UHGV virus genome: UHGV-0229283
Length of the DNA: 64,000 nucleotides
Direction: 5' to 3' (one strand)
From: a virus
The position numbers and the translations under genes are program-made. Shown here one piece after another: positions 8,365 through 16,485 of the stretch. The first letter of the stretch is position 1; each line of letters begins with the position of its first letter. The notes under the pieces are model-generated. The model was not told the DNA's origin and made no database searches. It saw nothing but the letters and a program-made list of their open reading frames with translations.

Positions 8365-8844
8365 TTACTGTGCCTTTGTTACGATAATTTGAGTATCAGG
8401 GCGCACAGGGATTTGGGAACCATCGCCGAGAGTCAGGATAACATCCTCCCCCATCGCACCAGTATTCGTTACGGTATAAACCTTTCCGCAAAACATGATC
8501 TCATCACCCTTACGGATTGCTTTAGCTGGGTAGTTCCCAGGTTCCCGATCAGTGTCTTCCAGCGGGTCATATGTTGCATGGAAAATTTCTGATTTGCAAG
8601 GATAGAATTCTCCAGCCACCCCTTTAATTACATAATCCCCAGCAGAGGCTACGACCACCCCCTCTGGGGTTTTTATCTCTACAGTACGACCACAATCACG
8701 AGTGTGGATTTCGGAATCCTTCCACACACCAGTTTCCATCCAATTATGGATCTGCCCTGCGCTGGTTGACGACCCGTCAAACTTATGTGCTTCAACCTCT
8801 ACAGGTTTTTTACGATAAAATCCCATTAGTATACAGGCTCCCAT
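8365..8844 (-). CDS. hypothetical protein
   Basis: 159-aa ORF. Confidence 0.4.
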   Translation of the reverse strand: MGACILMGFYRKKPVEVEAHKFDGSSTSAGQIHNWMETGVWKDSEIHTRDCGRTVEIKTPEGVVVASAGDYVIKGVAGEFYPCKSEIFHATYDPLEDTDREPGNYPAKAIRKGDEIMFCGKVYTVTNTGAMGEDVILTLGDGSQIPVRPDTQIIVTKAQ

Positions 8845-10139
8845 GTTAATGTATCGAGTTCACGAACGCTTTGGCCGACAGGGAACTGAGGAACACCATC
8901 ATCAGTTCTAGCTTGGAACGTGAAGTTAATAAACTTACCCACCAGAAGGAGCATTCGTTCCTGAGATCTCTCTGCGTGGGTTCCCTTCATTTTACAGTTG
9001 AAACGTGTACCATCTTTCTCTTCGCAGAGTAATACACCCTCACCGTTCTTATCTTCCACAGAATCAAGGACTTTAGCCTCGCCGTCTTGGAAAAGTTTCC
9101 ATTTCTGGAGATCAGAAGATCGCTGACCAAATTCATAGACACCTTTGAAATTTCGGATGATAGCACCCTCAAAGCCTTGCTGCATAAAATGTCCGATTGA
9201 TTGCTTAACCTCATCCTCAGTGTCAAAGACATTCCCTTGGACCACATTTATTTTATCTGCTTTAATAACAGAGGTGAAGTGGTCAGTGTCCATAAGGTCT
9301 TTGTATCGACACTCCTTATCTGTATAGTCTGAAATCCCATCGTTAATCATCCAGGGTTTATTTGAACACGGAATGTCAAAGATATGGTACTCTAGGTCAA
9401 GGCTTGAATAGCCGCCATAACGATCAACATCTTTAACTGGTTCGATCGCGACAGAGTAAACATCACCATCGAAATCTTTCCAACTGTCTTCCCCATTGTC
9501 AATAGCTTTCTGATGGCGCTTCAGGTCAGACTGATAATCCTTTTCAATCTCTTCCTCGATCTGCTCTGGTGTACGCCACTTCTTAGCAAGAGCGACAATC
9601 TTTTGCAGACTCAGACCATGAATGTACAGCTCCCCATCGAATTTGTCAAACCCTGAATGCTCAGAAAGGGATTTAACCTGTTCAGACAACTCAGAATCAA
9701 GCGGTACAGGATACAGTTTGTTACCACGGCTATTGAATTGTGGGAAGCCATCTGCATAAAGAGTAACCAGAGCACGTACACCATCGAGCTTTGGCTGCAC
9801 GTATGCAGGATAAACTATTGATTTTGAACGTTTAGTTGCATCATGGGCCAGCATTGGGGAGAAGTTCTCTTCCTGCTCAAGCTTGCTTGTATCGTCACGA
9901 TATCCAAGGCGAACCTGTTTCTCCCATTTGGAAACCGCCTCAGCCAATGCCTGCTGTTCTGCGGTGGTTTCGTTAGAACGTCCAACGTTCTTCGGTTCAC
10001 AGGTGGTAACCTTTTGTTGCTTCTTACCACCAACCTTGCCAAACTCTACAACTACCTGATTACCAGCAATAAACACCTTCCAACACTGGAAAGAACCATC
10101 TTTATTAAGGGCGTACAGTGTACTGTTTACTTGTTGCAT
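8826..10139 (-). CDS. ATP-dependent DNA ligase with N-terminal WGR-like domain
   Basis: Adenylation motif PKLDGVRAL (KxDG), motif EGAIIR, OB-fold C-terminus; N-terminus has a WGR-like segment. Confidence 0.8.
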   Translation of the reverse strand: MQQVNSTLYALNKDGSFQCWKVFIAGNQVVVEFGKVGGKKQQKVTTCEPKNVGRSNETTAEQQALAEAVSKWEKQVRLGYRDDTSKLEQEENFSPMLAHDATKRSKSIVYPAYVQPKLDGVRALVTLYADGFPQFNSRGNKLYPVPLDSELSEQVKSLSEHSGFDKFDGELYIHGLSLQKIVALAKKWRTPEQIEEEIEKDYQSDLKRHQKAIDNGEDSWKDFDGDVYSVAIEPVKDVDRYGGYSSLDLEYHIFDIPCSNKPWMINDGISDYTDKECRYKDLMDTDHFTSVIKADKINVVQGNVFDTEDEVKQSIGHFMQQGFEGAIIRNFKGVYEFGQRSSDLQKWKLFQDGEAKVLDSVEDKNGEGVLLCEEKDGTRFNCKMKGTHAERSQERMLLLVGKFINFTFQARTDDGVPQFPVGQSVRELDTLTWEPVY

Positions 10140-10915
10140 TATTTCTCCTTGCTTTGCAATGGTGTCTTACCTTCAAGGTGATTCTCAACTATCTTGATAA
10201 GGCCGGGATTATTAAAGGCATCAACAGCTCCGGTACGATATACAAGAACACCCGCATTCTCATACATCATTTGTTCATCATACCTAATAGCAGGATTAAC
10301 AACAACAACTTTGGTCCCCCGCATAACCGCAGGGAACAACTCCCAGTTGAAGTTGATTACCGTGTTTGAGCACCCAACAACAATTACAAGATCTTGGCTT
10401 CCTAAAGACTCCAGGGTATCAGACATAGGTCCATACGCCGGAGCATTTTCACCAAAGAAAATTACGTTTGGTTTACACCAATCATAATCATCAGGATCAA
10501 TTTGGTCGTAGCCAATATCGACAACCTTTATCTTCTTGGTGAAAGCATCTTTAACAAGGATCTCTTTCAGATAACCATGTATGTACAGAGTATCTTCTTT
10601 AGGGACACCCGCACGTTCCAACAAATCATCGACGTTAGTCGTCATGTTGATAACTTGTCCAGGATAACGTTTGTACCACTCAGCCACGCGAAGATGCGCC
10701 GCATTCGGGTGTACAGTGGGTAACTCTGCACGACGCTTGTTATAAAACATGTGCGTTTTATGGTAGAAGTTACCACGGAAAGCGTGGATATTACATACCT
10801 CTTCAAGATCGTATTCATCCCACAAGGCCTTCCCAGAGTCCGTATCGGTGCGGAATGTACGGACACCACTCTCAGCAGAAAAACCAGCACCACTAATAAC
10901 TATTAAGCGTCTCAA
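10139..10915 (-). CDS. Sir2-family NAD-dependent protein deacylase/ADP-ribosyltransferase (sirtuin)
   Basis: ISGAGFSAESGVRTFR (GAGxSxxSGIPxFR), TTNVDDL (TQNVD-like), catalytic HG (LYIHG), VVGCS. Confidence 0.7.
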   Translation of the reverse strand: MRRLIVISGAGFSAESGVRTFRTDTDSGKALWDEYDLEEVCNIHAFRGNFYHKTHMFYNKRRAELPTVHPNAAHLRVAEWYKRYPGQVINMTTNVDDLLERAGVPKEDTLYIHGYLKEILVKDAFTKKIKVVDIGYDQIDPDDYDWCKPNVIFFGENAPAYGPMSDTLESLGSQDLVIVVGCSNTVINFNWELFPAVMRGTKVVVVNPAIRYDEQMMYENAGVLVYRTGAVDAFNNPGLIKIVENHLEGKTPLQSKEK

Positions 10916-10925
10916 CTATTTCTCC

Positions 10926-11333
10926 TTATTGTAATTTCAACGAGTTGCGTAAACGAGACTCTTGGGCGTCACGGATTTCCTGTGGGACATTATGCACAGA
11001 GTCATTACCATGCCGATTTTCAAGTACAATACTGACCACTTGATAACCATATAACGTAGCCATTACAAGATATGGCTGCAACTCTTTTTCAGAAGTGCTT
11101 GTGTTGGAAACGATGATCTTTTCAAGATTGATTTCCATAGCATCACGAACCATGTCTTGGCACCATTTGTGGGCCTTATTCATGTTCTCTGGCTTCCAGT
11201 CATAAACACCGTCTTCAGTGTAATGATACTGGTCAGCTTCGCAAACAGGCCAGTACCCGTCAGAAGACAAAGTTTGTGCTAGTGTTGACTTACCTGCGCC
11301 TGAAACTCCACGGACAATATAAAGTGTTTTCAC
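10926..11333 (-). CDS. P-loop nucleotide/polynucleotide kinase-like protein
   Basis: Walker A GVSGAGKST near the N-terminus; small AAA_33/zeta-kinase-like size. Confidence 0.5.
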   Translation of the reverse strand: MKTLYIVRGVSGAGKSTLAQTLSSDGYWPVCEADQYHYTEDGVYDWKPENMNKAHKWCQDMVRDAMEINLEKIIVSNTSTSEKELQPYLVMATLYGYQVVSIVLENRHGNDSVHNVPQEIRDAQESRLRNSLKLQ

Positions 11334-11342
11334 TTTGCCTCC

Positions 11343-11687
11343 TCAGTAATTGTTTCTTAGAATCGTCACACCATACCTGGCCATGCTCTCTTTTGCAAGC
11401 ATAAATTTGTGTCCTGCCGATGGGTTAGATGTATGCACGAAGAGTTTTACAGGACCAAACAACATCTTACCAAAGACAATCTTCTCCTCAAGATTAAGGA
11501 AGCACCAATACCCATCGTGGTCTGAGATCTCACCAAGATCATTATCGAAATGCCACTCAGTGACACGACGATATGGCTTACTACGATCTTCAAGGAACTC
11601 CATGAAATCTTCAGAGTTCTTCAACCATAAAGCATCAGGATGACCATAGTCTTTTGGGTCACGAAGGTCATCAAGCCATATTTTCAC
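11343..11687 (-). CDS. hypothetical protein
   Basis: 114-aa ORF. Confidence 0.4.
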   Translation of the reverse strand: MKIWLDDLRDPKDYGHPDALWLKNSEDFMEFLEDRSKPYRRVTEWHFDNDLGEISDHDGYWCFLNLEEKIVFGKMLFGPVKLFVHTSNPSAGHKFMLAKESMARYGVTILRNNY

Positions 11688-12604
11688 TTTTTATCCTCAA
11701 AGTATTTTTCAATAATCTTGCGACGATGCTGAGAGTCCTGCATCGCCCACTCCTCTTTTTCCCAAGCCCAGCGCAGCCAGTCAATAAGGCCATAATACTC
11801 TTCGTCAACACGCTTCTTGGCCTCTTCTGGGTTATCCCAGATCATGTCCCACTTATTCTGGCTGCCACGCATCAGGAACTTCTTCGCCAGGTAGTGTGGG
11901 GACTTGATTTTCAGAAGCAGTTCGCTGTTTTCGTCATCTGTTCCGACATTACGGATAACGTAGCCCTCATGTCCCACATGCTTAACATTATGAACAACAT
12001 CACCAAATGGAACAACATCCCATTGAGGACGTTTTGCACCGATCACTTCAGCTATGCGATCAAGACGATATTCTTCAAGCATTTTCCCATTTAAAGCTAA
12101 GTCGCGCATACCGATCAAGTATGCACCTTCTTTCTCCTCAACAATGTGAGGGTCGCTACTGTCACAAATTTCAAAGATGAAAGTATAGTCCTCTGGAAAT
12201 GCAACAAGATCTAATTTCATCTTTTCAAGATATTTTCGCGCCAGATCAGAGAACTCAGAGTCAAGCGTCCCTGTTGTTGAAACAAGAAGCTTACCTTTAT
12301 GAATAGCTGCTGTCGCCATAAAACCGTTTACTTTACGGATACACACAACCTGCTGATCGAGGGGTAAGTCAGTTCCATTCTCGAAGCGGTTGAAAATCTT
12401 AGTGAAAGGCCAGATAACAACGTTGTCCTCTGCATCAACAACCATGCCACGGCATTCAAGAAGACGTGGGTCAGTATGCCACAGGTTATCCCAGAACACA
12501 TTGTTCTTATACTTCAGAACAGACAGACCCGCGAATGGGCCGTCGGTGTAAGTCTTTTTGGATACTAGGTTTTTAGCAACCATGTCGTCTACGCAGAATT
12601 TCAT
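11684..12604 (-). CDS. RNA ligase-like nucleotidyltransferase (Rnl family)
   Basis: Putative lysine-adenylation motif IRKVNGFMA (K-x-[DN]-G) in a 306-aa protein of typical Rnl size. Confidence 0.5.
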   Translation of the reverse strand: MKFCVDDMVAKNLVSKKTYTDGPFAGLSVLKYKNNVFWDNLWHTDPRLLECRGMVVDAEDNVVIWPFTKIFNRFENGTDLPLDQQVVCIRKVNGFMATAAIHKGKLLVSTTGTLDSEFSDLARKYLEKMKLDLVAFPEDYTFIFEICDSSDPHIVEEKEGAYLIGMRDLALNGKMLEEYRLDRIAEVIGAKRPQWDVVPFGDVVHNVKHVGHEGYVIRNVGTDDENSELLLKIKSPHYLAKKFLMRGSQNKWDMIWDNPEEAKKRVDEEYYGLIDWLRWAWEKEEWAMQDSQHRRKIIEKYFEDKK

Positions 12605-12770
12605 GTTCTCTCCTTCGTCTGAGATTTTTCAATAGTTTGAGCACTTCTTTTTGTGCTGATTTCATTTCGCTGTAGTCATCATAGATGCTCAGATCTAGTT
12701 CGTCAACATATTCTTCAAGCTCGCTAATCAAAAAGGCCACGTTATGGATAAGATCAAGATCTTTTTTCAT
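12573..12770 (-). CDS. hypothetical protein
   Basis: 65-aa ORF. Confidence 0.3.
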   Translation of the reverse strand: MKKDLDLIHNVAFLISELEEYVDELDLSIYDDYSEMKSAQKEVLKLLKNLRRRREHEILRRRHGC

Positions 12771-13110
12771 AACCTTCCGCCTGATAATATGTTGTATTAT
12801 AAGGGGTTTCGATACTGAAGCTTATCTGGCACATCTCCTGAGCAAGATATTTTCCAAGTTCGACAGCCATTGATAATATCTCATGCTCCTGACGCTGGAA
12901 ACGTGGATACTGCATCAACCGCACAGTCATACCATCTTCGACACCACCTGTGTAAACATAGGTGCATGGAGCAATCTGCACACAAGCACCTTGCATAACC
13001 CACTGGCGACACAAATTCTCGGCCTGAGCATAATCCCCGGCAATGTGAATAGTAGCGAAGAAAGACTTCGCCGTGTTACGTGCTATGAAATTTCGTTCTT
13101 TGTTATGCAT
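12754..13110 (-). CDS. hypothetical protein
   Basis: 118-aa ORF. Confidence 0.35.
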   Translation of the reverse strand: MHNKERNFIARNTAKSFFATIHIAGDYAQAENLCRQWVMQGACVQIAPCTYVYTGGVEDGMTVRLMQYPRFQRQEHEILSMAVELGKYLAQEMCQISFSIETPYNTTYYQAEGYEKRS

Positions 13111-13111
13111 C

Positions 13112-13705
13112 TTATTCTCCGTGGTCAGCAGTGTAGATTGGTTTTTTGAGGCACATCAGGACGGCCTCACGCATCGTCAGAGGACGACCATGAACATCCC
13201 AACCTACATCGAGAATACGTCCACCGGGGGCTGTATAGGAGCCGTGGCTATGCCCGTGCAACATGACTGACCCGTGGTGTGCTTTGTTCCACGATGCGAA
13301 CGGATAGTGAGACATACACACATGCACCTTCTCTTTTCCAGTGCTGAAGTTAATCTCTTTATAATCAACAACTTCATGACCTAATTCACGGAAGATACGT
13401 TTCGTATCTCGGTTGTCATGGTTACCACCAACAAGAATGATCTTTCCGTTGATCTTTTCCAGAATATCACGAGTGCGTGGCTCAACGTAGCGACCGTAAG
13501 CGATCACGAAGTCACCAAGGTGTGCTACGACATCATCTGGTTTGACGTGCTTATTCCAGATTTCAATCATACCTGCATTCATGGCATACAGACTTTCACG
13601 GTCTTCTTTTTGACCGTACAGATTCTTACGGAATTTATCACACGATGGGAAACCAAGGATGTTGGTATGCCACCAGTGAGTGTCTGACGTAACATGGTCA
13701 ATCAT
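13112..13705 (-). CDS. calcineurin-like metallophosphoesterase
   Basis: Motifs GDFV...GNHD...HGHSH of the metallophosphatase superfamily. Confidence 0.7.
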   Translation of the reverse strand: MIDHVTSDTHWWHTNILGFPSCDKFRKNLYGQKEDRESLYAMNAGMIEIWNKHVKPDDVVAHLGDFVIAYGRYVEPRTRDILEKINGKIILVGGNHDNRDTKRIFRELGHEVVDYKEINFSTGKEKVHVCMSHYPFASWNKAHHGSVMLHGHSHGSYTAPGGRILDVGWDVHGRPLTMREAVLMCLKKPIYTADHGE

Positions 13706-13941
13706 GTATTCTCCTGATATCTTTTTACAAGTTCCTCTTGAATATGAAGTGTAACATCACGAACTTCACCTTCAAGGTCGTGGAGCACAGGACGAAGAAT
13801 ATCACGGATCAACTGTCTCTGCGAAGGTGTTATCCGATTTGCCTTCATAGCCTCTCGGCATACTTGGAAAGTAGCCGTGATGTTTTTCTGCTTTTCTTTC
13901 AACATTTTCTTTCTTCTGTTTAGTTTTGCAAGTCTGCTCAT
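13702..13941 (-). CDS. hypothetical protein
   Basis: 79-aa basic ORF. Confidence 0.35.
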   Translation of the reverse strand: MSRLAKLNRRKKMLKEKQKNITATFQVCREAMKANRITPSQRQLIRDILRPVLHDLEGEVRDVTLHIQEELVKRYQENT

Positions 13942-14222
13942 TTTTTCTTCCTCTTCGTAGTTTTCTTATACAGACCCAGTGCAGCATTTTCCTGAGCACA
14001 TGTCAATACCCGTGTTAATCCGCGACGATCAACCTCCGGCATGTTAAGCTCCCACCAACCCATCCAATAGATCTGATCCTTTGTCAGTGGTTCCGCTTCA
14101 GGATCTGCCTCCTGTTCATTCAGTCGCTGTAGAGCATCTTTAATCACACCCACATCGGTTGTGAACACAAATGCAGAGGTATCAAACTTTTCCTTGACAG
14201 GTTTCCTGATATCTTTCTTCAT
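13938..14222 (-). CDS. hypothetical protein
   Basis: 94-aa ORF. Confidence 0.35.
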   Translation of the reverse strand: MKKDIRKPVKEKFDTSAFVFTTDVGVIKDALQRLNEQEADPEAEPLTKDQIYWMGWWELNMPEVDRRGLTRVLTCAQENAALGLYKKTTKRKKK

Positions 14223-14509
14223 TTCATATCCTCAGCCGGGTAGGCGAACAGAATCCCATCCCTGATTTTCTGGTAATGTTGCCACACAATAAGTTTCATG
14301 CACACCAAGTTAACGATATGCCTATCACCATGAATGTAAACTGAAGCATCCATCCATGTCTTTCCCCAGTCTACCCGGCTATCTAAGTACAGTTTCACAC
14401 CATACTTTTTCTCCATAGACTTCATGATGTCTCTCAGAGCTAGATAAGCACCTTTATAGATGGAGTCATCACGGGTAATGCTCTTCATATCCAAAATAAT
14501 CCTCCACAA
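14219..14509 (-). CDS. hypothetical protein
   Basis: 96-aa ORF. Confidence 0.35.
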   Translation of the reverse strand: MWRIILDMKSITRDDSIYKGAYLALRDIMKSMEKKYGVKLYLDSRVDWGKTWMDASVYIHGDRHIVNLVCMKLIVWQHYQKIRDGILFAYPAEDMK

Positions 14510-14605
14510 TACCTCTCAGAGCCTCTGGGAGGCCCTGTATTTAATTTAATATGGGTTGGTAACCCAAGTGTACTACCACACCATTAAAACGCCTTAGAAC
14601 ACGTT

Positions 14606-14947
14606 CTAGAGCGTTACATGGATTTCACTTAGATCCACCACAACATTGTTGTTCTCGATGTGTTCCACAGTCAAGTCCTTTGCATATGTTACACACACAT
14701 TACGTCGAGCTAGTCTCGACTTTATCGAAGCATAGAAGTTATCGAAGACCTTGTCAACTGGTATACCATCTGGTAATACCACGCACACATTGTGGTCTTC
14801 ACCACATTCATGATACACTTCACGTAACATCATCAACTTGGTCTTCTCTTCATCGGTCTGCTCCGGTTTCCGTCGTGGCTTACCACAGACCATTTCACCG
14901 ATAATTTTTGTTTCTTTACTTGAAAACATAGCAATCTCCTTTAACAT
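14606..14947 (-). CDS. hypothetical early protein
   Basis: First ORF downstream of the minus-strand sigma70-like promoter at 14955-14982. Confidence 0.4.
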   Translation of the reverse strand: MLKEIAMFSSKETKIIGEMVCGKPRRKPEQTDEEKTKLMMLREVYHECGEDHNVCVVLPDGIPVDKVFDNFYASIKSRLARRNVCVTYAKDLTVEHIENNNVVVDLSEIHVTL

Positions 14948-14954
14948 TAACTAG

Positions 14955-14982
14955 ATTCTACACGTTAAAAAGTTCATGTCAA
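14955..14982 (-). promoter_or_regulatory. sigma70-like promoter for leftward early operon
   Basis: On complement: TTGACA (14977-14982) - 16 nt - TAGAAT (14955-14960); first gene starts at 14947. Confidence 0.55.
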
Positions 14983-14985
14983 CAC

Positions 14986-15014
14986 TTGACATCATCTTTT
15001 CTTCATACGATAAT
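14986..15014 (+). promoter_or_regulatory. sigma70-like promoter for rightward transcription
   Basis: TTGACA (14986-14991) - 17 nt - GATAAT (15009-15014). Its -35 is the other half of the palindrome ATGTCAACACTTGACAT shared with the leftward promoter. Confidence 0.55.
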
Positions 15015-15252: not shown

Positions 15253-15627
15253 ATGGTGGTGGAGATAAAGATTGGTGACAACACTGTGAATATCAGAGAT
15301 GGGGCATATGTCACCATTCCGACACAGTGGCTTTTTGATGACCGTCTCTCACCCCAAGATTTGCAAAGATTAATCAAGCTTTGGTGGAGGTATGATTACT
15401 TCAAGAGTCTAAACCCAGATGGTGGCGATGAAGTTTTTTACCCATCTCAGAAATCTTTGTGCCATCTGTTTGGGTTGAGCGAGAAGTCACAACCGAAAGT
15501 ATCAGAGTTCTTGACAAAGATGGAGTCTCTTGGATACATTAGAAGGATACGTTCTGGTTTTCAGGATTCAAATGGGAATGCAAAACCTAGACATTACATA
15601 ATTGTTAATAGAGGATATATGAAATGA
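15253..15627 (+). CDS. hypothetical protein (possible winged-helix DNA-binding)
   Basis: First plus-strand gene after the divergent promoter region; good RBS (aaacaggagatggtg). Confidence 0.35.
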   Translation: MVVEIKIGDNTVNIRDGAYVTIPTQWLFDDRLSPQDLQRLIKLWWRYDYFKSLNPDGGDEVFYPSQKSLCHLFGLSEKSQPKVSEFLTKMESLGYIRRIRSGFQDSNGNAKPRHYIIVNRGYMK

Positions 15628-16424
15628 GTTTAGAACTTCGTCTGAACAAACTTGTAGTACCTGTCGATCACTTTACGTTCAAAGGTGGTGAAGAACAGGT
15701 TAAAATTGACATGGCGCATACCCCAAAAGGTGGTATTGGTTTCGTAGACATCACTGCGAAAATCAAAAACTCTACTGATGTTATGGCTCTTGCCATGTTG
15801 GTGGATGCATGTTCTCGCCTTGAAGGCCTTCATCATACTGCACAGTTCACTTTGCATCTACCGTACATCCCATATGCACGACAGGACCGCGTAATGCAAC
15901 CTGGTGAAGCGTTATCCATCAAAGTTTTCGCAAATATCGTCAACTCTCTTGGGTTTGACAAGGTCATTGTCGATGATCCGCACAGCGATGTCTCCGCCGC
16001 GTTGCTTAACAACGTTAAAATCCGTGGTCAGGACGCTCTTATTGCGGAATTCCATGAAGGTCTTGCCGGAAAAGATGTTGTTATCGTTGCCCCTGACGCC
16101 GGAGCACGTAAAAAAGCTCAGAAAGTTTCCGATCGACTTCGCCTTCCTCTGGTGGAAGCTGGAAAAGTGCGCGACCTGAAGACAAATGAAATTACCGGGA
16201 CTGCTGTTTTCGGTGATGTTGAAGGACGTGAGTGTGTTATTGTCGATGATATCTGCGATGGTGGTCGCACATTCATCGCCCTGGCACAAGCATTGAAGGC
16301 AAAAGGAGCAAAACGTGTTATTCTTTACGTAACTCACGGTATCTTTTCCTTCGGTAAAGAAGTTATCTACGAAGGCGGCGTTGATGAAATCTACGCGTAC
16401 CACGACTGGACCGAAAACTTTTAA
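15624..16424 (+). CDS. prs: ribose-phosphate pyrophosphokinase (PRPP synthetase)
   Basis: YARQDR motif, PRPP-binding loop (VIVDDICDGGRT), typical length 266 aa. Confidence 0.85.
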   Translation: MSLELRLNKLVVPVDHFTFKGGEEQVKIDMAHTPKGGIGFVDITAKIKNSTDVMALAMLVDACSRLEGLHHTAQFTLHLPYIPYARQDRVMQPGEALSIKVFANIVNSLGFDKVIVDDPHSDVSAALLNNVKIRGQDALIAEFHEGLAGKDVVIVAPDAGARKKAQKVSDRLRLPLVEAGKVRDLKTNEITGTAVFGDVEGRECVIVDDICDGGRTFIALAQALKAKGAKRVILYVTHGIFSFGKEVIYEGGVDEIYAYHDWTENF

Positions 16425-16485
16425 TTGACAAATGAATAAGTGGGCGTACAATCGCCCTATTAAACAAACAAAGGAGAAACAAAAC

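Follow-up and report, generated by a model that had tools for sequence, protein, structure and literature searches.

Organization of the locus

The locus analyzed here raises the question whether three neighbouring phage genes, encoding a P-loop kinase, an RNA ligase-like protein and a calcineurin-type metallophosphoesterase, form a pathway for the repair of broken RNA, and which of the adjacent genes take part in it. A common way in which bacteria halt phages is to cleave the tRNAs of their own cell; a phage that is able both to replace and to repair tRNAs evades this defence. The window, i.e. the whole stretch of 64,000 nucleotides under analysis, is 99.9% identical to Klebsiella phage KP12 (Vequintavirinae), and its repair region is 93% identical to Proteus phage Mydo. 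The three ORFs noticed in a first-pass annotation were all present at exactly the positions given there, each on the minus strand (Table 1). They belong to a co-oriented minus-strand block extending from 14947 down to approximately 7772, in which neighbouring reading frames overlap or are separated by gaps of at most 10 nt throughout the repair genes. The latter are tightly packed with overlapping stop and start codons, and a strong promoter-like site lies upstream. It is probable that the repair genes are co-transcribed, and early. The large tRNA cluster remarked upon in the annotation comprises 25 tRNA genes located 6 kb from the repair genes. A search of the ORFs from 8365 to 14947 for a Hen1 methyltransferase gave no match to a methyltransferase family in Pfam or NCBIfam.

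Table 1. Genes and promoter-like sites at the repair locus (positions in the window)
Feature	Position	Strand	Evidence or remark
MazG-like nucleotide pyrophosphohydrolase candidate, 159 aa	8365..8844	-	phrog_419 (E 1e-44); phrog_4159 (E 2e-7)
ATP-dependent DNA ligase	8826..10139		two genes downstream
Sirtuin (Sir2)	10139..10915	-	PF02146 (E 3.5e-22); phrog_2162
Minimal polynucleotide 5'-kinase-type P-loop protein, 135 aa	10926..11333	-	AAA_33; PDB profile; hhalign; Foldseek
cREC (cyclic-phosphate-processing receiver-like) protein, 114 aa	11343..11687	-	PF20274 (E 9e-14)
ATP-dependent RNA ligase, Rnl1/Trl1 clade, 306 aa	11684..12604	-	PF09511; AF2 model; Foldseek; hhalign
Conserved ORF of unknown function, 65 aa	12573..12770	-	phrog_32298 (E 9e-42)
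ORF of unknown function, 118 aa	12754..13110	-	phrog_4848 (E 5e-51); between phosphoesterase and ligase
Binuclear metallophosphoesterase, 197 aa, Aq_1665 branch	13112..13705	-	Metallophos; phrog_547; 1XM7
Sigma-70-like promoter	14955..14982	-	consensus scan, 11/12 matches; heads the minus-strand gene block
Divergent promoter paired with the preceding site	14986..15014	+	consensus scan

Kinase, ligase and phosphoesterase

The kinase gene starts with GTG, and its product carries the Walker A motif GVSGAGKST at residues 9-17 with an invariant K15. Matches were obtained to Pfam AAA_33 (E 5e-9), to phrog_2071 and to the polynucleotide kinase family phrog_505. A PDB search with the single sequence yielded only P-loop-level matches to gluconokinases, and a profile was needed to rank T4 Pnk (1LY1), Pnkp1 (4XRP) and CthPnk (4GP7) first. 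By hhalign, the protein was aligned with residues 1-149 of T4 Pnk (probability 97.5%, E 6e-12), which is the kinase domain only; a phosphatase domain is missing. K15 corresponds to K15 of T4 Pnk in this alignment, and HMMER and hhalign agree that the invariant D34 is the equivalent of T4 D35 (D38 in Cth), the catalytic aspartate serving as general base. With the AF2 model (pLDDT 88), the top 19 Foldseek matches were all T4 Pnk or CthPnk (TM 0.74-0.80) while adenylate kinases reached a TM of only about 0.5. Profile and fold thus bear out the earlier view that the closest relatives are polynucleotide kinases and not adenylate or dNMP kinases. In T4 Pnk, R38 and R126 touch the 3'-phosphate of the polynucleotide and the beta-phosphate of the NTP and are important for polynucleotide binding or catalysis. 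By alignment, their equivalents are not conserved: hhalign paired R38 with H37 and R126 with D110, and R107, opposite T4 R122, is the sole arginine aligned. Judged from the sequence, this mismatch weakens but does not exclude strict membership in the polynucleotide kinases since the lid alignment could be a few residues off. That the protein phosphorylates the 5'-OH of polynucleotides is indirectly suggested by fusions to an RNA ligase in 12 contigs and by the adjacent ligase gene in 73 of 84 loci.

The relationship of the ligase became visible only through Pfam, a comparison with T4 Rnl1 by hhalign and a fold search; single-sequence and HMMER profile searches of the PDB found nothing relevant. 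Pfam assigned the protein to RNA_lig_T4_1 (E 5e-13), and it matched phrog_562, the T4 gp63/Rnl1 family (E 1e-63). Motif I reads KVNG (K91 to G94), with K91 as the predicted adenylylation site. In the hhalign comparison (probability 96.9%) motifs I, III, IV and V of T4 Rnl1 were aligned, K91 corresponding to K99, E145 to E159, E213/G214 to E227/G228 and K232/K234 to K240/K242, and the residues of these four motifs are invariant in 24 homologues. Furthermore, R52, K69 and F71 match R54, K75 and F77 of T4 Rnl1, whose K119 position is occupied by an invariant T111 within STTG. The AF2 model (pLDDT 90.6) revealed the nucleotidyltransferase fold that had been expected for this protein, followed by helices from residue 236 to 305, and its top Foldseek matches were Trl1-LIG (6N0T) and T4 Rnl1 (5TT6/9DO4/2C5U; E approximately 1e-11, TM 0.60-0.65). 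The helical C-terminal domain of about 70 residues is shorter than that of T4 Rnl1 and does not align past T4 residue 264. Two invariant basic residues, K242 and R246, lie in its first helix. Because of these conserved residues at the start of the C-terminal domain and the Trl1-type KxNG motif, the ligase might depend on a 2'-phosphate end, in which case the role of the phosphoesterase would change.

For the phosphoesterase, matches to Metallophos (E 1e-6) and phrog_547 (E 9e-50) were found. D8, H10, D65, N95, H133, H152 and H154 do not vary among 27 homologues, and at least 90% of these conserve H96, so that the motifs DxH, GD, GNH[DE], H, GH and GHxH are kept (G64-D65, G94-N95-(H96)-D97, G151-H152, H154). 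The best PDB match of the profile was aq_1665 (1XM7, E 2e-22), followed by GpdQ and Rv0805, and no lambda-phosphatase or Pnkp phosphatase chain appeared at E values up to 0.1. The proposed calcineurin type holds only at superfamily level, with all metal ligands kept, and the nearest solved structure is Aq_1665 and neither Pnkp nor lambda phosphatase. According to these profiles the enzyme belongs to the uncharacterised Aq_1665 branch and not to the lambda-phosphatase/Pnkp branch. It is a stand-alone protein, fused neither to the kinase nor to the ligase, and is proposed as the 3'-end healing enzyme which would remove a 2',3'-cyclic or 3'-phosphate. NCBIfam gave only weak matches to YfcE and PdeM for this protein, and no useful family for the kinase, the ligase or cREC.

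Accessory genes

The first-pass annotation had been made without the cREC gene between kinase and ligase, without the two small ORFs separating the ligase from the phosphoesterase and without the adjacent sirtuin, MazG-like gene and NARP1-like NAD+ pair. In the literature, the cREC, sirtuin and MazG-like partners are treated as one system with the repair genes (Iyer et al. 2022, PMC9503650). There, cREC is predicted to open 2',3'-cyclic phosphates, the sirtuin is hypothesised to remove 2'-phosphates like KptA/Tpt1, and a MazG-superfamily gene is listed in the neighbourhood of phages V5 and Mydo. The cREC start overlaps the ligase stop (GTGA), and the receiver-like acidic motifs WxDDxRDP, HFDNDLGE and VH[ST]SNPSA are kept in 10 homologues. 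One of the two families matched by the MazG-like candidate, phrog_4159, is annotated as nucleotide pyrophosphohydrolase. The Prs-like protein shares 38-41% identity with its Felixounavirus homologues. It was also considered whether the phosphoesterase might be the "phage phosphatase" extending NARP1; this was rejected as that enzyme is a Macro-domain ADPR-1''-phosphatase and not a metallophosphoesterase.

The 118-aa ORF has no match in Pfam or NCBIfam. It occurs in 7 of 85 loci (the 84 independent loci described below plus the KP12 duplicate, L001) and, being present only in close relatives, is probably not core. Within the same 85 loci the 65-aa ORF was found six times. Its reading frame shares 32 nt with the start of the ligase gene and has no entry in the feature table of KP12.

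Linkage of the genes in other phages

To this ligase type, 84 independent sources contributed, in which partners were counted within 6 kb. The same type of kinase accompanied the ligase in 73 loci, sharing its strand in 72 and lying no more than 150 nt from it in 46. For the same type of phosphoesterase the corresponding numbers were 63, 62 and 34. Several gene orders occurred, including MPE-LIG-KIN and KIN-LIG-MPE. When the ligases were collapsed at 55% identity, 19 of 29 lineages possessed kinase and phosphoesterase in one locus, and the phosphoesterase accompanied the ligase in 23. Clustering of the three genes is thus not due to chance. Sirtuin and cREC were near the ligase in only two lineages; the phosphoesterase belongs with ligase and kinase to the core whereas sirtuin and cREC are rare accessories. 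Homologues of Prs/NadV were detected in 13 of the 29 lineages within 6 kb, and a DNA ligase homologue at this distance in 30 of the 85 loci (KP12 duplicate included). In 12 viral contigs the kinase is fused to the N-terminus of the ligase. As to what might replace the phosphoesterase in the fusion lineages, these share a conserved upstream ORF of about 236 aa for which neither a Pfam match nor even a weak match to the phosphoesterase profile was obtained. On a 160-kb phage contig, the kinase adjoins a ligase of the Rnl2 type, and upstream of them lie two metallophosphoesterases and a ligase of the Rnl1 type. Among large enterobacterial and metagenomic phages, the split kinase/phosphoesterase/ligase kit is widespread. 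Among 185,579 bacterial and archaeal genomes, stringent peptide patterns detected this ligase type on a single contig of 554 bp.

Possible modes of repair

It is rather likely that this Vequintavirinae phage encodes a three-enzyme module for the healing and sealing of RNA ends as separate genes. From the observed folds, motif conservation, synteny and kinase-ligase fusions we infer enzymatic activities as follows. The phosphoesterase would hydrolyse the cyclic or 3'-phosphate to a ligatable 3'-OH, perhaps helped by cREC, which may open the cyclic phosphate. The kinase would transfer a phosphate from NTP onto the 5'-OH, with D34 as general base and K15/S16 holding the NTP. Finally, the ligase, adenylylated on K91, would pass AMP to the 5'-phosphate and seal the break. 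The substrate is probably tRNA cut by bacterial defence nucleases, the responsible host nuclease being presumed, and the module would act beside the 25 tRNA genes and the genes for NAD+ reconstitution next to it, as one part of a counter-defence block. Neither the type of the kinase nor the fold of the ligase nor the phosphoesterase speaks against the RNA repair proposed at first, and all three lend it support. The locus presents the split repair kit in a clean and compact form. Since genes for NAD+ reconstitution and a large array of tRNA genes belong to the same block, the locus is relevant to Klebsiella therapeutic phages, which might be chosen or engineered for resistance to abortive-infection defences.

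A different course of events has been published for phages V5 and Mydo (PMC9503650). Here, cREC or the phosphoesterase would open the cyclic phosphate to a 2'-phosphate/3'-OH end, the junction would be sealed with its 2'-phosphate retained, and the sirtuin would strip the latter at the expense of NAD+ in the manner of KptA/Tpt1. ADP-ribose by-products would be cleared by the MazG-like protein, by the phosphoesterase or by both, and the neighbouring NARP1-like genes would keep NAD+ available. This NAD+-dependent route is consistent with the position of sirtuin, cREC and MazG-like gene in one co-oriented block, with the frequency of Prs/NadV homologues near the ligase and with the Trl1-like features of the ligase, namely motif I and the match to Trl1-LIG. 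Moreover, K242 and R246 fall within the region in which Trl1 of Chaetomium has its 2'-phosphate-binding residues R334 and R337. On the other hand, T4 Rnl1 is an equally good fold match and does not ligate 2'-phosphate ends, the trio is widespread without sirtuin and cREC, and we know of no sirtuin shown to act as RNA 2'-phosphotransferase. As a whole, the NAD+-dependent route is unlikely. Quite unlikely, too, is that the ligase is a phage counterpart of Trl1 which seals 2'-phosphate/3'-OH ends and that the 2'-phosphate of the junction is then stripped by the phage sirtuin or by host KptA with NAD+ supplied by the adjacent NARP1-like genes. If true, this would be the first case of RNA repair by an NAD+-dependent pathway in a bacterial virus, and the first of a sirtuin with RNA 2'-phosphotransferase activity.

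It is also conceivable that the phosphoesterase is not an RNA-end enzyme but serves elsewhere in counter-defence or metabolism, for instance in the breakdown of cyclic-nucleotide immune signals or as a protein phosphatase or nuclease, and that 3'-ends are healed by cREC or a host enzyme. Its weaker PDB relatives, the glycerophosphodiesterase GpdQ and the cyclic-nucleotide phosphodiesterase Rv0805, the weak NCBIfam matches, the two unrelated small ORFs parting it from the ligase in the window and the distant relatives in phages without an RNA ligase nearby would fit such a role. However, the gene keeps to the strand and vicinity of the ligase through rearrangements of gene order, a linkage for which chance or membership in a generic island provides no explanation, and as cREC is absent from most loci with ligase and phosphoesterase, another enzyme for 3'-end healing would be needed there. 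Altogether, a role apart from RNA ends is improbable. Most improbable is that kinase and phosphoesterase prepare DNA breaks with 5'-OH and 3'-phosphate ends for sealing by the ATP-dependent DNA ligase nearby: though T4 Pnk is active on both DNA and RNA, PdeM is associated with a DNA ligase, and the position of the DNA ligase gene two genes away would allow some DNA-end healing, the kinase is fused to the RNA and not the DNA ligase in 12 contigs, the RNA ligase is accompanied by kinase and phosphoesterase far more regularly than by the DNA ligase, and it falls into the RNA-specific Rnl1/Trl1 clade.

Comparison with known systems

[quoted passage not shown] In T4, this tRNA repair counters the anticodon nuclease PrrC. 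The 3'-phosphatase of T4 Pnk is a fused HAD (DxDxT) domain, while the phage studied here has a separate metallophosphoesterase and a kinase of only 135 aa. Similarly, T4 Rnl1 (374 aa) has KEDG and K119 where the shorter ligase of this phage has KxNG and a threonine.

With bacterial Pnkp (Pnkp-Hen1 of Clostridium thermocellum, Pnkp1-Rnl-Hen1 of Capnocytophaga) the locus shares a P-loop polynucleotide kinase, a binuclear metallophosphoesterase and an ATP-dependent ligase, and the kinase domains of CthPnk and Pnkp1 are among the best kinase matches. Bacterial Pnkp is however one polypeptide instead of three, its phosphatase is lambda-phosphatase-like and not of the Aq_1665 type, and its ligase is of the Pnkp ligase type and not of the Rnl1/Trl1 type. 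The analogy to Pnkp/Hen1 drawn in the first-pass annotation thus stands for the three activities and is only partial, as Hen1, the partner of the bacterial enzyme, has no counterpart among the ORFs of the cluster.

Fungal and plant Trl1 (LIG-KIN-CPD) has the KxNG motif I and a matching fold in common with the ligase, and a single polypeptide of kinase and ligase with some of its relatives. The domain order is ligase then kinase in Trl1, but kinase then ligase in the phage fusions, and the cyclic phosphate is processed by a 2H phosphodiesterase in Trl1 but would be processed by the metallophosphoesterase and/or cREC in the phage.

The closest system is the sirtuin-centred RNA-repair neighbourhood of V5 and Mydo (Iyer, Burroughs, Anantharaman, Aravind 2022, Viruses 14:1977, section 3.7.3, PMC9503650), which comprises the same genes: sirtuin, T4-like tRNA ligase, cREC, nucleotide kinase, MazG-like protein and calcineurin-like phosphoesterase. 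The window has all six genes of this type (type 2 in that paper) in one orientation between 8365 and 13705, the phage group is the same, and there is no material difference between the loci. The neighbourhood has already been described for near-identical phages by comparative genomics, with its role as a prediction, and the remaining value is biochemical, the dependence on 2'-phosphate and sirtuin being directly testable. What separates the two studies is the weight given to single members: the phosphoesterase, regarded as occasional by Iyer et al., proved to be core in our survey, whereas sirtuin and cREC proved to be rare.

Results

The kinase, RNA ligase and metallophosphoesterase genes were found exactly where the first-pass annotation had placed them, all on the minus strand, and its interpretation of them as an RNA-repair set is supported by evidence from sequence, fold and context. 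Klebsiella phage KP12 (Vequintavirinae) shares 99.9% identity with the region; for Klebsiella phage BIS47 and Proteus phage Mydo the figure is 93%. The three genes are part of a co-oriented, tightly packed minus-strand block, in which the ligase stop codon overlaps the start of the next gene (GTGA), the gaps flanking the kinase gene do not exceed 10 nt and the sirtuin and DNA-ligase genes overlap by 1 nt. While the three repair ORFs of the initial gene list stood, the list had overlooked a cyclic-phosphate-processing receiver-like protein (cREC), the sirtuin, the DNA ligase and a MazG-like ORF. Back-to-back sigma-70-like promoters (14955-15014) form the boundary between the minus-strand repair block and a plus-strand NAD+/tRNA block, in which the Prs-like and NAMPT-like genes are followed by 25 tRNA genes. 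Inside this tRNA array, ARAGORN assigned an abnormal two-base 'anticodon', but no tRNA identity, to a tRNA-like gene (24122-24191, plus strand).

Genes and putative promoters of the repair block and the adjoining NAD+ genes
Feature	Position	Strand	Remarks
MazG-like ORF	8365-8844	minus	downstream of kinase, same co-oriented block
ATP-dependent DNA ligase	8826-10139	minus	downstream of kinase, same co-oriented block
Sirtuin	10139-10915	minus	downstream of kinase, same co-oriented block
Kinase	10926-11333	minus	135 aa; Pfam AAA_33; phrog_2071
cREC	11343-11687	minus	114 aa; between kinase and ligase; PF20274, E 9e-14
RNA ligase	11684-12604	minus	Pfam RNA_lig_T4_1, E 5e-13; phrog_562 (T4 gp63/Rnl1 family), E 1e-63
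Small ORF	12573-12770	minus	65 aa; phrog_32298; overlaps ligase start by 32 nt; absent from KP12 annotation
Small ORF	12754-13110	minus	phrog_4848; conserved
Phosphoesterase	13112-13705	minus	Pfam Metallophos; phrog_547
Sigma-70-like promoter	14955-14982		strong; head of minus-strand repair block; 11/12 consensus matches
Divergent sigma-70-like promoter	14986-15014		faces plus-strand block; 11/12 consensus matches
Prs-like gene	15624-16424	plus	adjoins NAMPT-like gene
NAMPT-like gene	16432-18186	plus	adjoins Prs-like gene

The strongest new evidence of this analysis came from a linkage survey. Eighty loci with ligase relatives (33-85% identity) were fetched from IMG/VR and each of their ORFs was searched with profiles of the kinase, ligase and phosphoesterase, counts being taken from 84 non-duplicate sources. 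The kinase type was present in 73 of the 84 ligase sources, on the same strand in 72 and within 150 nt in 46 of these 73; for the phosphoesterase type, detected in 63 of the 84, the corresponding values were 62 and 34. When the ligases were collapsed at 55% identity into 29 lineages, 22 lineages were accompanied by the kinase and 23 by the phosphoesterase, and 19 had both in one locus. On unrelated contigs with distant homologues, phosphoesterase, ligase and kinase genes were contiguous, and at least two gene orders occurred (phosphoesterase-ligase-kinase and kinase-ligase-phosphoesterase). On 12 metagenomic viral contigs (L047, L048, L054-L056, L059, L061, L063, L065, L069-L071; for example L048:5560-6825), the kinase is fused to the N-terminus of the ligase in a single protein of ~430 aa, which is a classical indication that both act on the same substrate. 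Upstream of the fusions lies a conserved ORF of ~236 aa, for which no family match was obtained. A further 160-kb phage contig (L004, 2068-7442) carries an Rnl1-type ligase, two metallophosphoesterases, the kinase type of the window and an Rnl2-type ligase (PF09414) in one row. The sirtuin and cREC accompany the ligase type in only two of the 29 lineages, as against 23 for the phosphoesterase. Compared with the published prediction for this neighbourhood, the survey thus shifts the weight: kinase, ligase and phosphoesterase are the core, and sirtuin and cREC are lineage-specific additions. The two conserved small ORFs between ligase and phosphoesterase were confined to close relatives in the surveyed loci.

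For the kinase, PHROGs also gave secondary matches, one a polynucleotide kinase (phrog_505), the other the N-terminal part of an 'RNA ligase' family of 737 aa. When the PDB was searched with a profile built from 21 homologues, the seven top-ranking sequences were those of T4 Pnk (1LY1/1LTQ), the kinase domain of Clostridium thermocellum Pnkp (4GP7 and others) and Capnocytophaga Pnkp1 (4XRP). Lower scores, based on the P-loop alone, went to adenylate kinases, gluconokinases and nicotinamide riboside kinase. The AF2 model (pLDDT 88.4) had T4 Pnk and CthPnk as nearest folds (TM 0.74-0.80), followed by O-phosphoseryl-tRNA kinase (TM ~0.7) and adenylate kinases (~0.5), so that the protein is not a dNMP/adenylate kinase by either search. 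In hhalign (97.5% probability, E 6e-12), the alignment took in the entire kinase, against no more of T4 Pnk than residues 1-149. It thus lacks the phosphatase domain, and the GenBank label of the identical KP12 protein ('3'-phosphatase, 5'-polynucleotide kinase') overstates its content. Of the T4 Pnk residues, K15 and the general base D35 pair with K15 and with D34, which is invariant, and R122 pairs with R107, while R38 and R126 are unmatched in this alignment (H37 and D110, respectively).

HMMER searches of the PDB with the ligase were unsuccessful, whereas hhalign matched it to T4 Rnl1 (96.9% probability, E 2e-10), pairing R52 with R54, K69/F71 with K75/F77, K91 with the adenylylated K99, E145 with E159, E213/G214 with E227/G228 and K232/K234 with K240/K242. 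All of these ligase residues are invariant among 24 homologues; the position of T4 Rnl1 K119 is taken by an invariant Thr within an STTG motif. The nucleotidyltransferase fold, whose absence would have spoken against a ligase, is seen in the AF2 model (pLDDT 90.6, pTM 0.86), which comprises an adenylyltransferase fold and a helical C-terminal domain of ~70 residues. Its best Foldseek matches were fungal Trl1-LIG (6N0T, 8RBJ, 9QW7, 6N67) and T4 Rnl1 (5TT6, 9DO4, 2C5U), followed by archaeal Rnl3, Rnl5 and Rnl2. The K-x-N-G motif noticed at first is indeed present and is the Trl1 form of motif I (PMC10946426), which reads KEDG in T4 Rnl1. As representative genomes of bacteria and archaea yielded essentially no close homologue when scanned, the clade appears to be phage-restricted at the stringency used. 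A tail-fibre attachment activity in the style of T4 gp63, which the PHROG name suggests, would be compatible with RNA ligation.

The phosphoesterase looks catalytically competent, judging from its binuclear-centre ligands (D8, H10, D65, N95, H133, H152, H154), which are all invariant among 27 homologues, and from H96 of the GNHD motif, which is at least 90% conserved in the same set. It had been likened to the calcineurin-like enzyme of bacterial Pnkp. The common superfamily holds, but the branch is a different one, because the closest relative of solved structure is Aq_1665 of Aquifex (1XM7, E 2e-22), itself uncharacterised, followed by weaker matches to GpdQ and Rv0805, and no lambda-phosphatase or CthPnkp phosphatase chain was retrieved from the PDB at E values up to 0.1. 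Within 6 kb of the kinase-ligase fusions on the 12 contigs, no Aq_1665-type phosphoesterase was found.

Discussion

The most economical reading of these sequences and models is a T4/Pnkp-like pathway split over three separate proteins. The metallophosphoesterase would strip a 2',3'-cyclic or 3'-phosphate, the kinase would add a phosphate to the 5'-OH, and the ligase would seal the ends via K91-AMP. From the folds, motifs, synteny and fusions observed for the repair genes, we infer these activities, an RNA (tRNA) substrate and a host nuclease as trigger. The cREC protein, with its conserved receiver-like acidic motifs (WxDDxRDP, HFDNDLGE, VH[ST]SNPSA), belongs to a family defined as predicted cyclic-phosphate-opening enzymes linked to RNA ligases (Iyer et al. 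2021, PMC7824862).

The main uncertainty in the mechanism is whether the ligase depends on a 2'-phosphate, as Trl1 does. Pointing that way are the KxNG motif I and, on helix one of the C-terminal domain, the residues K242/R246, both invariant. In Chaetomium Trl1, the 2'-phosphate is bound by R334/R337 and the C-terminal domain begins at E328 (PMC12440814); K242/R246 lie in the equivalent region, but a match to R334/R337 is a lead rather than a result. On the other hand, 2'-phosphate ends are rejected by T4 Rnl1, whose fold matches equally well. A route involving the sirtuin and NAD+ is unlikely, even though Iyer et al. (2022) proposed the sirtuin as a KptA-like 2'-phosphate remover and NAD+ genes lie nearby. 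The Prs-like/NAMPT-like pair matches the two-gene architecture (Adps-Namat) of NARP1, which rebuilds NAD+, as demonstrated in phage Bas63. Homologues of the Prs-like protein were present in 1,571 phage records, the identity of the protein to those of Felixounaviruses being 38-41%, and homologues of the pair lay within 6 kb of the ligase type in 13 of the 29 lineages. This proximity fits a shared early counter-defence block; a functional NAD+ link to the repair genes is less likely.

An unrelated role of the phosphoesterase is improbable in view of its linkage to the ligase; distant members of its family (<40% identity) do occur in phage contexts devoid of an RNA ligase, so the family is broader than RNA repair. 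That the module heals DNA ends for the nearby DNA ligase is very improbable, the fusion partner of the kinase on other contigs being the RNA ligase.

The split three-protein pathway is of low novelty, since an RNA-repair role of the same neighbourhood, including the sirtuin and the MazG-like gene, is already published as a prediction for the same phage group (Iyer et al. 2022, PMC9503650). The remaining interest lies in the biochemistry, especially in the dependence on 2'-phosphate and sirtuin. In T4 Pnk, a phosphatase domain stands alongside the kinase, whereas the phage kinase matches the kinase domain only.
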